DNA from: a virus
Length of the DNA stretch: 64,000 bases
Virus record (IMG/VR): IMGVR_UViG_3300021597_000002
Span: 1-64,000 of that record
Reading direction: 5' to 3' (one strand)
A model generated the notes under the pieces. It was not told the origin of the DNA. It saw only the letters and a list, made by a program, of their open reading frames with translations, and did not search any database. Both the position numbers and the translations under genes were made by a program. Shown piece after piece: positions 14,959 to 48,050 of the stretch; within the stretch, counting starts at the first letter, position 1; each line of letters starts with the position of its first letter.

Positions 14959-14981
14959 ACAGAGAAGAAGGAAACCAACAC

Positions 14982-24746: not shown

Positions 24747-25301
24747 TTACGCCGCTTGTTCTATTGCCAAACCAGACTCTGTTAAAGCTGCTTGTACCGC
24801 TTCAATAATGCGGACCATGTAGGCGTATTTGTGAGGGACTCGCGTTGGGACAGTAATTGAACCAAAGTCCAAATACTCAAACTCTTCTTCGCTTTCAAAA
24901 TCAGTGCATTTATAAGTGTCATAGCTATGTTCTGGTGCGTATTCTTCCCAATCTTCAATATCGTAAAGCGCACGAGCTAAGCTAGAGCCGATAAGATTCA
25001 TGCGACGGCGACCTAATATGTGCTCTCTAGCTAAGGGTAAGAAAGCGTCATAATCAGGCTCTTCACTACTTAATGCTCCGCACAGGTTAGAGATCAGGTA
25101 GCCCTCATCGCAGCTGCAGAAGAACTGCGCAATAGTTCTTCCACCCATAGCGCCCCAGAATGAAGACCAAGACTTACCGTAGCATTCAATGACAATCTTT
25201 CCTTTGCCAATTTCATAGTCTTCTAAAAAAACAGTGATTGGGTCGAGGGATTCAACCTCAGTAATGCGCAACTTAATCGCTGTGCTTTGTTCGATTTTCA
25301 T
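24747..25301 (-). CDS. Phage hypothetical protein
   Basis: 184 aa ORF with AAGGA RBS. Confidence 0.75.
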   Translation of the reverse strand: MKIEQSTAIKLRITEVESLDPITVFLEDYEIGKGKIVIECYGKSWSSFWGAMGGRTIAQFFCSCDEGYLISNLCGALSSEEPDYDAFLPLAREHILGRRRMNLIGSSLARALYDIEDWEEYAPEHSYDTYKCTDFESEEEFEYLDFGSITVPTRVPHKYAYMVRIIEAVQAALTESGLAIEQAA

Positions 25302-25451
25302 GATTTTTTCCTTTGGTCGGGGTTACAAATCTAATTGCTATAACGAGAATATAATAAGATTGTGTAAATCAATCAAGGGAAAGATAGGGAAATGTGAGAA
25401 ATGACGGGGGATTTCTTATTGCTAAAACGTGCTTTTAGCAATTAGGAAGCT

Positions 25452-25628
25452 AAAAAAATGCCCCGCATCCTTGCGAGGCTACCCTAATACCCTACTGGCA
25501 GTGCAATCTATACATTGGGATAGCAATGCTCGCTCTTGGCATGAGGTTGGGGGACGACAGCCAGTGTAAACACCACTTACCGAACCCCCGTGTGCAGCTA
25601 AGGGAAGCTACGCCATTGCAAACAATGC
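25452..25628 (-). ncRNA. Candidate structured RNA of about 175 nt
   Basis: Candidate promoter at 25635-25680, intrinsic terminator at 25452-25479, nested helices with G-U pairs on this strand, no convincing ORF. Confidence 0.5.
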
Positions 25629-25681
25629 CCGTTCATCTTAGTGCGGTCACTACGCAGCCAACCACAACAAAAAAATGTTGG

Positions 25682-25747
25682 ATATAAGAAAGCCCACTCA
25701 CAAGAGCGGGCTTTGTCTTACACCGAGTTGAAAGAAGGAAGCTTTCA
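25682..25747 (-). ncRNA. Candidate small RNA of about 65 nt
   Basis: Candidate promoter at 25754-25798, 5' hairpin with CUUCCUU loop, terminator-like hairpin at 25689-25714. Confidence 0.5.
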
Positions 25748-25931
25748 CAAACGATAGTACGGACGCTTATGCGCTGGTACTACAACATTTTCTTGTTATC
25801 CTCGCCGCCTTACTAAGCCACACAATGGCGCAGCCATTGCCCGTAATTTAAACGATTAGGACCATTGTTCCTGTGTAGTTAGCATGAGTATTTTTTACAC
25901 AGGGTTATCCCCTTAATTTGGGGATAACCGC

Positions 25932-27650
25932 TTATGCTCGCTTATAAAACTTGAAGAACTCATCCAATCGCTCGATTTCCATCAAGCCAACTTGAGCGTA
26001 CTCCTCCAAGCCGTCCTCTATCCAATCACCACATGCTGACTGTATCGCAGCTCTAACCTCGGGGTAATCTTCAGCAAGACACTCAACCACACCACCGCTT
26101 TCAATTGCAGCCACTGCCTGATCTGCTGGGCTTGATTCTTCCTCTCCCAGCAATGCCATTGCGTTAGCCAGTGCACTATCAGATTGACCGTCGCTTTGCT
26201 CGCCGGCAGGAATGTAATCCACCAACCAGAAGAATGCTGTTGCGTCGAAAATATCAGGAGACTTAATGCCCTCACTACGCAGCTGCTTCTTAGAGAACAG
26301 GCGCCAACGTCCCAACTCATCAAACTCATACGGGATCTTGACGAATTGCTTCTGCAGTTTCTTCTCAAACTGTTTCGTCTCACCTTTATGCAGCTTCAAG
26401 CGACCAGTATTCAACGCTTCCTTGACCATGACACACGCATAGTCTTTTTCTTTCGGGAATCGCTGTTTCACTGAGTTAGCATGTGGAGGTCTACCCCAGT
26501 GGATGCGAGTAACATTCACACCAAGCTTTTCACACTCTTGAGCAGTTGTCAGACCGTACCCGTCCGCATCAATACCAACAGTGATATTGGTGTAGCCAGA
26601 TGTTTCTTGATGGATAAAGCGAGCAAATTGAACCCCATCCATATCTGCAGGTGCTTCGATAGCCTTAACGACCTCTACCTGTCGCTCACTACCAAAGCCA
26701 CAAACCTTACCGATCTTGAGCACTGAGCTATCTCGACCTTCACCGCCTGCAACGTCGGCAACAGCCACCCATCCCCACTCATCAACAAACTCAATAACCG
26801 CCTCAAAGCCTTTATCGACCATGCTACGGGAGATCAGGAAGCCACTTGCATCATCAGGACACACACCAAGAACACGAATGCCATACTCAGGGCTACTCAC
26901 ACCCCCGTATTCGATACGTTTTTCTCGGATAAACTTGAGGTTAACAAACGGACTCATTTCACTATTAAGCGTGATAGCCGTGTACAACCCTTGCTCTGCC
27001 AATTCCATTTGTGAATCAGCAAAGTGACCAGTTGGGCGCGTAAACTGGCTAATGAGTAGCATTTTGTTGTTGTCTTCGGTCAATGCACCACGAAGCACTT
27101 CAAACGCTCGATCGGATACACCAGACGCTTCATCGACCACCACCATGTAATCCCTACGGTGCTGACCGGCTAAGCCTTCCTCATTGCCTTTTGAACATGT
27201 TTTCCCGAAAATTTGCCATACGCCCTTGTAGCCTTTCGCATAGAAAGACTTAGCTGTAATGACGAAGTACTGCTCCAACCACGGCTGACGCTGGCAGATC
27301 TTCACCCAAAGGCGCTTAATGTATGAGAAGACAACGTTAGTTACCTGATCTAAGGAGTTTGCCGTCAACATACACAGAGATTCTGGGTGTGTAATGATGA
27401 AATGAAGACACAAAGCTGCGGTTAGGTGAGACTTACCCGTACCGTGACCAGAAGCAACAGACACACGCGCCCCGACCGGAGTCAGGGCGTTAATGACTTC
27501 AATTTGCTGAAACGATGGTTCCATCCCGATAATGTCGTAGATGAAAGCCAACGGTCGACTTCGGTAGCTCGCTGCAAAATCCAGATAACGAGGATCCAGC
27601 GTAATAGCGGCGTGCTTATGCTTTTTGCGGCTTCGGTTTCTAGCTGCCAT
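25932..27650 (-). CDS. pacB: Terminase large subunit (P1 PacB-like)
   Basis: SGHGTGKS Walker A, VVVDEA Walker B, nuclease DVAGGEGRDSS and SPDIFDA. Confidence 0.93.
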   Translation of the reverse strand: MAARNRSRKKHKHAAITLDPRYLDFAASYRSRPLAFIYDIIGMEPSFQQIEVINALTPVGARVSVASGHGTGKSHLTAALCLHFIITHPESLCMLTANSLDQVTNVVFSYIKRLWVKICQRQPWLEQYFVITAKSFYAKGYKGVWQIFGKTCSKGNEEGLAGQHRRDYMVVVDEASGVSDRAFEVLRGALTEDNNKMLLISQFTRPTGHFADSQMELAEQGLYTAITLNSEMSPFVNLKFIREKRIEYGGVSSPEYGIRVLGVCPDDASGFLISRSMVDKGFEAVIEFVDEWGWVAVADVAGGEGRDSSVLKIGKVCGFGSERQVEVVKAIEAPADMDGVQFARFIHQETSGYTNITVGIDADGYGLTTAQECEKLGVNVTRIHWGRPPHANSVKQRFPKEKDYACVMVKEALNTGRLKLHKGETKQFEKKLQKQFVKIPYEFDELGRWRLFSKKQLRSEGIKSPDIFDATAFFWLVDYIPAGEQSDGQSDSALANAMALLGEEESSPADQAVAAIESGGVVECLAEDYPEVRAAIQSACGDWIEDGLEEYAQVGLMEIERLDEFFKFYKRA

Positions 27651-37408: not shown

Positions 37409-37457
37409 TGGGTTTCCTTCTTTGTGTGATTTAAAGGGTTTTGGTCAGGGTCTGTAA

Positions 37458-39637: not shown

Positions 39638-39713
39638 AAGGTTGGCGTATCGCCCCGACCAAAGATTGATACGCCATAGTCTACACACCACACAGGAAGA
39701 AGGATCCCAAACA

Positions 39714-47606: not shown

Positions 47607-47633
47607 ACTCTGGGATCCTTCTTTCTTCTGGTA

Positions 47634-48050
47634 TTACTTTTTTTGAGTTGCAGCTGCAAGCTCTGCTTCCAACTGGCTTAGAATGGTGCGTTCTGAGCGC
47701 AGCGTTATTTGAGCACTGGTTAGGCGCTCACTTTGCTGTTCGATTTCGCGGCGAAGTTGTTCAGGATCACGAGGCGCAGTTTGGGAAATAAACTGATGCT
47801 TGTTTTCTCGAAGCTGTTCAAGGAATGGGCTATGACAGTCTTTATTGGCAGCATCAATATTAATCGACTCATAAGCTTGAGGATTAACACGACGGCAATA
47901 CTTGTGAAGGATTTCGCGGCAAGCGGCATACTTCATACCGTTTACTGCCGCGACATCTGAGGTTTTAGCGCCCTTTAGAATGGCGCACGCAATTTGTTCT
48001 TCTTTTCTGAGTGAGATTTCACGCTCTTGATTTGTCTCGGTCTTGTCCAT
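47634..48050 (-). CDS. Putative HTH protein with C-terminal coiled coil
   Basis: ILKGAKTSDVAAVNGMK..ACREIL helix-turn-helix-like segment. Confidence 0.55.
   Translation of the reverse strand: MDKTETNQEREISLRKEEQIACAILKGAKTSDVAAVNGMKYAACREILHKYCRRVNPQAYESINIDAANKDCHSPFLEQLRENKHQFISQTAPRDPEQLRREIEQQSERLTSAQITLRSERTILSQLEAELAAATQKK

Follow-up and report, generated by a model that had tools for sequence, protein, structure and literature searches.

Genomic context of the locus

The IMG/VR virus record examined here is 78.3 kb long and carries terminal repeats; the window (64,000 nucleotides) corresponds to its first 64 kb. Over the studied region the record is 98% identical to a Vibrio campbellii plasmid of 74 kb, and further relatives are found in p0908, pAMBAS45, V. 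cholerae pE7G, V. vulnificus p48/10 and a Photobacterium toruni plasmid. The PacB protein of the record is ∼40% identical to PacB of P1, and P1-like annotations are present on p48/10 (Pro, PmgS and Hdf, among others), which together indicate that the record is a distant Vibrio P1-like phage-plasmid.

Between the terminase gene pacB and a 184-aa ORF (orf184) there is a 630-nt gap devoid of ORFs (25302–25931). No minus-strand ORF of at least 30 aa could be found in it, in line with the earlier note, which had described this DNA as free of ORFs. The gap is kept in all relatives, although the gene downstream of it varies. In P1 and in more distant Vibrio P1-like plasmids, pacB is followed by a c1-type repressor gene on the opposite strand (the c1-like protein of the latter plasmids displays a weak similarity to C1, E 4e-4); in the clade under study this place is occupied by two predicted RNA genes, termed here RNA-A and RNA-B (Table 1). 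BLAST with P1 Lpa, C1 and Coi and with a Vibrio c1-like protein gave no match in the 78-kb record, and no tRNA or tmRNA was found. In the distant Vibrio plasmids (L030–L032) the c1-like gene is located between pacB and a small-recombinase operon; after it comes an AT-rich non-coding gap of ∼1 kb that contains palindromes of its own. These gaps show no similarity to the RNA-A/RNA-B module.

The 3′ flank of pacB that precedes RNA-A contains three inverted repeats and is 83% identical to the corresponding segment of pE7G, a value above that of RNA-A itself. The pacAB late mRNA probably has its 3′ UTR here and would end at the RNA-A terminator. In the first repeat of this flank (GGTTATCCCC-N7-GGGGATAACC) the stem letters do not vary while the loop does, and both arms resemble a DnaA box.

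At the other end of the gap, downstream of the RNA-B terminator, lies the orf184/small-recombinase operon with its sigma70 promoter. This promoter region is a module boundary, outside both RNA-A and RNA-B. The boundary of the RNA module is also marked by an insertion in an IMG/VR relative (L014, 640–990), where an ORF of ∼80 aa with its own terminator has entered at the exact junction of the RNA-B terminator and the operator region. Three operator-like ATTGCTAWAA sites (25334–25350 and 25418–25445), two of which form a palindrome, flank the orf184 promoter; the 7-mer ATTGCTA occurs only three other times in the window, none of them in such an operator context.

Table 1. Annotated and predicted features of the region between pacB and orf184 (window coordinates).
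Feature	Position	Strand	Remarks
pacB	25932-27650	minus	
Conserved pacB 3′ flank	25799-25931	minus	three inverted repeats: 25903-25929, ~25853-25869, 25823-25839
P-A box	25783-25798	minus	TAACA-AGAAAA-TGTTG; activator-type, centred about -43
P-A -10 hexamer	25754-25759	minus	TACTAT; 23-nt spacer (25782-25760) after box
RNA-A (predicted, ~65 nt)	25682-25747	minus	ends predicted
RNA-A 5′ hairpin	25747-25729	minus	UGAAAG/CUUCCUU/CUUUCA
RNA-A conserved 9-mer	25739-25731	minus	UCCUUCUUU
RNA-A invariant segment	25726-25716	minus	UCGGUGUAAGA
RNA-A terminator stem-loop	25714-25689	minus	11 bp; tail CUUAUAU 25688-25682
P-B box	25665-25680	minus	CAACA-TTTTTT-TGTTG; perfect palindrome directly after RNA-A tail
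P-B -10 hexamer	25635-25640	minus	TAAGAT; 24 nt after box
RNA-B (predicted, ~177 nt)	25452-25628	minus	core ~25520-25630, variable 3′ part, terminator
RNA-B strong terminator	25460-25479 + U7	minus	
Sigma70 promoter for downstream orf184 operon	-35 25371-25376, -10 25348-25353	minus	within 25302-25451
184-aa ORF (orf184)	24747-25301	minus	

The RNA-A promoter and the late regulon

The leftward regulon-type promoter reported in the earlier note (TAACA-N6-TGTTG, 23 nt, TACTAT) is indeed present on the minus strand, and is referred to here as P-A. The underlying composite pattern (AACA-N6-TGTT, 23–24 nt and TAnnnT) has five exact sites in the window, all on the minus strand, whereas 200 dinucleotide shuffles had 0.1 sites on average and at most 2. 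Allowing one mismatch raises the number of minus-strand sites to seven, all of which, with a single exception, are intergenic with respect to the called genes and located upstream of leftward genes. Promoters of this regulon precede the portal gene (PHROG portal, E 5e-189), a baseplate gene and other operons, and the composite sites occupy orthologous positions in p48/10. We infer that the regulon box, being centred near -43, is an activator site in place of a -35 element. Since the same promoter type stands before the portal and baseplate genes, the label of a "lytic-phase" RNA applied earlier to RNA-A appears reasonable as a prediction. According to its annotation, P1 itself has late promoters that are built differently, with a box at -22.

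A candidate activator pair for this regulon may be proposed from a weak paralogy (25% identity, E 3.5e-4) between a 138-aa ORF (47634–48050), which heads the rdgC-trfA operon behind a perfect regulon box, and a 185-aa ORF located elsewhere in the record (record positions 65096–65653, L036:1096–1653). Pfam and PHROGs searches assigned no function to either paralog. A consensus LexA box (TACTGTATAAATAAACAGTA; record position 65032, L036:1032) precedes the 185-aa ORF, and a PAS-HTH (VqmA-like) gene (L036:185–937) is found just upstream of this LexA-boxed gene.

Comparison with the relatives revealed that the P-A box reads AAACA-N6-TGTTG in p48/10 and pE7G and AAATA-N6-TGTTG in Photobacterium. In pE7G and p48/10 the -10 hexamer is TAATAT (5/6 letters shared with the window) and again follows the box at a distance of 23 nt. 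Between the window and pE7G, identity is 81% over the box and only 35% over the spacer, the length of which is unchanged.

These observations bear on the possibility that the hairpin downstream of P-A is a mere terminator of the pacAB late operon, with the P-A box being an activator site that yields no productive short RNA and the CU-rich conservation being incidental or reflecting a DNA- or protein-binding site. In its favour, pacB is followed by no other terminator-like element before this hairpin, the intervening 133 nt are highly conserved, and T-rich tails surround the hairpin on both strands. On the other hand, the box, the exact 23-nt spacer and the -10 hexamer are all kept across relatives that are 74% identical, even though the spacer letters diverge, and such composite sites are expected by chance at 0.1 per window. 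We consider the mere-terminator explanation quite improbable.

Structure and conservation of RNA-A

The fold proposed for RNA-A in the earlier note (a 5′ hairpin, a linker and an 11-bp hairpin with a U-rich tail) was reproduced as described, with an MFE of -25.1 kcal/mol (z = -4.6) that none of 200 shuffles equalled in stability. At the level of sequence, the unit is a predicted short non-coding transcript, bounded by its own promoter and a Rho-independent terminator. The terminator scan did not call the hairpin of the window type, the tail of which (CUUAUAU) is weak, so that read-through into RNA-B is possible. The seed segment GCUUCCUUCUUUC was located at 25742–25730, as had been proposed. 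The 9-mer UCCUUCUUU within it has a mean unpaired probability of ∼0.5, half of it being predicted to pair in the window-type fold, which agrees with the original caveat that a part of the seed sits in a stem.

A small peptide encoded in RNA-A was considered and rejected, as the RNA contains two-codon frames only; a plus-strand reading of GAAAGAAGGAAG as a ribosome-binding site was likewise rejected, as there is no start codon within 20 nt. A search against Rfam, a check suggested in the earlier note, detected no family at the gathering threshold across the whole window, none at E up to 10 in the gap (25200–26000) and none at E up to 5 in three relatives; RNA-A thus matches no Rfam family. Weak Rfam hits to the Trp/Thr leader and CyaR reflect the terminator hairpin only. 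The contigs of four runs have no bearing on expression either way: three of the runs (probably DNA) are without cover of 25323–25720, and the fourth covers only 25236–25567 and 26118–26345, at lower identity.

RNA-A occurs in three divergent lineages, namely the window/BoB-90 type, the p0908 group (including an IMG/VR variant) and the pE7G/p48-10 type. Relatives with ∼74% identity keep the box, the spacer length, the -10 hexamer, the 5′ hairpin, UCCUUCUUU, UCGGUGUAAGA and a covarying terminator. The 9-mer UCCUUCUUU is found in every lineage that has RNA-A, and UCGGUGUAAGA is identical at 11 of 11 positions in pE7G. The 5′ hairpin of pE7G is rebuilt from other letters (GACG-GUUAA-CGUC), and the 9-mer has shifted from the loop and stem (window) to a single-stranded linker (pE7G). 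It thus appears to be conserved in sequence and not in structure, as expected of a pairing seed. The stem letters of the terminator also differ in pE7G with the pairing retained, and the U tract of the pE7G/p48-10 type (UUUAUUUUUU) is a good one, better than that of the window.

Taken together, this pattern is what a promoter, an RNA with a functional sequence and a terminator would leave behind, and not what drifting spacer DNA would, and we consider it fairly probable that RNA-A is a genuine transcription unit of the late regulon. Pattern scans of viral, genome and metagenome sequences for wider homologs returned the same clade and chance matches only; the family comprises about six sequence types, all from a single phage clade, hence the comparative power is low. 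The Photobacterium relative is without the RNA-A body and has a single P-A-like box with a TATATT -10 hexamer directly before RNA-B, suggesting that RNA-A is either dispensable or recent.

RNA-B, a predicted tandem partner of RNA-A

RNA-A is probably the first of two tandem RNA genes that follow the terminase gene. The second, RNA-B, is preceded by P-B, a promoter of the same type as P-A, and the frame of the earlier note did not include this point, namely that RNA-A is the first half of a two-RNA module. In pE7G, P-B reads CAATA-N6-TGTTG with TACTAT after 23 nt, its spacer being ∼50% identical and of about the same length.

The core of RNA-B is 86–90% identical across the Vibrio lineages, better conserved than RNA-A, and it persists in the Photobacterium relative. 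In the predicted fold, a hairpin with the loop UUCCCUU and a long arm carrying the invariant segments GUUCGGUAAG and GCUGUCG are set within a closing helix. Standard pairs make up 96.7% of the paired cells, and compensatory changes are found at eight pairs, a count reached by none of 500 shuffles, with all eight contributed by the single Photobacterium sequence. Folding gave -67.1 kcal/mol (z = -2.1) for the minus strand and -50.6 kcal/mol (z = -0.1) for the plus strand. RNA-B has no Rfam family and no conserved ORF; a 16-aa frame within it was rejected as a peptide since its start codon is lost in pE7G. A search for long antisense targets of RNA-B in the phage genome yielded none, the longest match (12 nt) being at chance level. 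Pairing of the RNA-A loop with the terminator loop of RNA-B (AAGGAU) was also considered and rejected, this motif being absent in pE7G. A model of RNA-B (R1) had matches in 2 of the 151 Vibrionaceae species genomes searched and none in P1 or in four P1-like plasmids that are more distant, so that in the searched sets RNA-B is limited to this phage clade.

The tandem arrangement raises the question of whether RNA-A could be a 5′ leader or attenuator of a longer transcript from P-A, which would run through a leaky terminator into RNA-B, the short RNA being a by-product and its hairpin tuning the RNA-B precursor. Such a role would be compatible with the weak, uncalled terminator of the window type, with the P-B box abutting the RNA-A tail, with the better conservation of RNA-B, and with the situation in Photobacterium, where RNA-B would be transcribed directly from the P-A-like promoter (TGTTGTAG context) and has a 5′ extension that aligns to the P-B region of the window. 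However, every Vibrio type has at P-B a box of its own, a spacer of conserved length and a -10 hexamer, the pE7G/p48-10 terminator ends in the good U tract mentioned above, and an attenuator role would leave the conservation of UCCUUCUUU and UCGGUGUAAGA unexplained. We regard the leader explanation as unlikely.

Predicted targets of RNA-A

The five complementarities listed in the earlier note between the seed and ribosome-binding sites (RBSs) do exist (10 nt for ndpA and rdgC, 9 nt for mazE and parA and 8 nt for orf39714). Their interpretation as specific targets was not supported, the statistics being near chance for a CU-rich RNA set against purine-rich Shine-Dalgarno regions; nor was support obtained for the proposed silencing of the antitoxin or of maintenance genes. 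Seed matches of at least 8 nt occur in 4 of the 99 called TIRs (5 with mazE, which was missed by the gene caller and is outside the 99). Composition-matched shuffled seeds, a control that had been called for, match 0.94±1.1 TIRs, and 3.6% of them reach 4, so that the observed number is not clearly beyond chance. Across the whole record, the linker/terminator part of RNA-A has perfect matches of 10–11 nt just as often as the seed, hence match length alone carries no signal. That the seed matches fall at RBSs is accounted for by composition (CU-rich versus purine-rich), just as the earlier note had cautioned in stating that purine-rich RBSs match such seeds easily.

Conservation of targets was assessed with 52 ortholog TIR pairs from the window and p48/10, using the RNA-A of each lineage. 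The best target was equalled by 22% of shuffles and the mean of the top three by 6.7%, so that no specific complementary targets emerged from these comparisons both beyond chance and kept in the relatives. The only unusual value was the mean over all 52 pairs (1.3% of shuffles as low): RNA-A pairs with TIRs in general better than composition-matched shuffles do, which indicates a generic anti-Shine-Dalgarno-like composition. The top conserved candidates were orf39714, pmgS and rdgC. The pmgS leader pairs in two parts (ACCGAGUU and GAAGGA), with one C-G pair replaced by U-A in p48/10; this change is suggestive, though as a single event among many comparisons it is weak evidence. The RBS regions of ndpA (37409–37430), rdgC (47607–47630), orf39714 (39690–39713) and mazE (14960–14980) share the motif AAGAAGGA[AU][AC]CC[CA]A, which is conserved in p48/10 and extends past the part complementary to RNA-A; their resemblance therefore need not be due to RNA-A. 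Within the leader of the downstream operon (25302–25440) there is no complementarity of at least 9 nt to RNA-A or of at least 10 nt to RNA-B. Overall, the proposed list of RBS targets should not be taken at face value.

With no phage target standing out, RNA-A could instead be a real sRNA that acts on host mRNAs or titrates an RNA-binding protein such as Hfq, with no silencing of phage maintenance or early genes. Hfq-binding sRNAs typically have an A-rich stretch before the terminator and then a U tail, and a similar arrangement is seen in RNA-A (AAGAAAAAG in pE7G). The sRNA VpdS of vibriophage VP882 is summarised as acting on host as well as phage RNAs and competing for Hfq (PMC12197685). We judge a host- or protein-directed role of this kind for RNA-A to be rather unlikely.

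Proposed role of RNA-A

Our preferred explanation is that RNA-A is a small non-coding RNA gene of the lytic phase whose product would pair through UCCUUCUUU with purine-rich TIRs; taken as a whole, we assign to it a probability of roughly 40%. The gene would sit in the 3′ flank of pacB and be driven by an activator-dependent promoter of the morphogenesis-gene type, which is the reason for expecting the RNA to be made in the lytic phase. Its intrinsic terminator probably also ends the pacAB late mRNA, an arrangement that would resemble 3′-UTR sRNAs with their own promoter. The conserved pyrimidine stretch UCCUUCUUU, possibly together with UCGGUGU, would most likely base-pair with purine-rich TIRs of phage or host mRNAs, and translation of these would be lowered late in infection. 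The more specific idea that RNA-A occludes purine-rich RBSs of the early or maintenance genes of the phage itself seems doubtful to us. The promoter architecture, the terminator, the lack of an ORF and the way in which the unit is conserved are evident from sequence and from the relatives. RNA-A is on the whole a plausible new phage sRNA gene, its transcription, timing, pairing and every target being predictions.

A bolder version may be envisaged, in which RNA-A and RNA-B would make up a late-expressed two-RNA module at the place of c1 immunity. RNA-A would then provide a broad anti-Shine-Dalgarno shut-off of early and maintenance translation, and RNA-B, working with RNA-A or with the adjacent packaging machinery, would be a structured phage RNA of a new class, either protein-binding or catalytic. 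We consider this combination quite improbable.

Lytic-programme sRNAs are known from few phages only, and phage-plasmids of the P1 type are widespread in Vibrio as vehicles of gene transfer. If RNA-A is real, it would offer a compact and testable case of a late-regulon sRNA and, together with RNA-B, a conserved RNA module adjoining terminase genes. In practical terms, the analysis provides a precise predicted pair of transcripts to seek in RNA-seq of such lysogens upon induction.

Comparison with known systems

The arrangement at the locus has several parallels. DapZ and MicL exemplify 3′-UTR sRNAs that have an internal promoter and share the terminator of the mRNA. Similarly, the RNA-A promoter is inside the pacB 3′ flank and the terminator of the sRNA is the first one after pacB; however, this promoter belongs to a phage late regulon and a second RNA gene comes directly after RNA-A. 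The PR′-6S/tR′ region of lambda likewise has a late promoter followed by a short terminated RNA. In contrast to lambda, RNA-A and RNA-B are not followed by late genes, the downstream genes having a sigma70 promoter of their own under operator control, and no Q-like antiterminator was identified.

Among phage sRNAs, precedents are VpdS of vibriophage VP882 and c4 of P1/P7 (PMC12197685). Like RNA-A, c4 (Rfam C4, RF01695) is a small RNA of a P1-type phage-plasmid, and it blocks a ribosome-binding site through complementary sequences displayed in loops. The two differ in that c4 serves lysogeny (immunity I), is processed from the operon under its control and has its target sites just downstream, whereas RNA-A follows pacB and has a promoter of the late type. 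The C4 covariance model gave no match at the gathering threshold, nor at E up to 10 in 25200–26000.

VpdS is described as an Hfq-dependent, trans-acting RNA of ∼50 nt, made at the start of the lytic programme and acting on phage and host mRNAs (PMC12197685). Both VpdS and RNA-A would be short RNAs of a Vibrio plasmid-like prophage, expression, Hfq binding and targets being only predicted for RNA-A, and a PAS-HTH gene of the VqmA-like kind is also present in the record studied here, adjacent to a gene with a LexA box. On the other hand, VP882 is an N15-like linear plasmid phage and the record is P1-like, no sequence or Rfam relationship between VpdS and RNA-A was found, and RNA-A is paired with a second, larger RNA. 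Overall, the kind of element is a known one, represented by phage sRNAs such as VpdS and c4, of which RNA-A would be a new and unrelated member.
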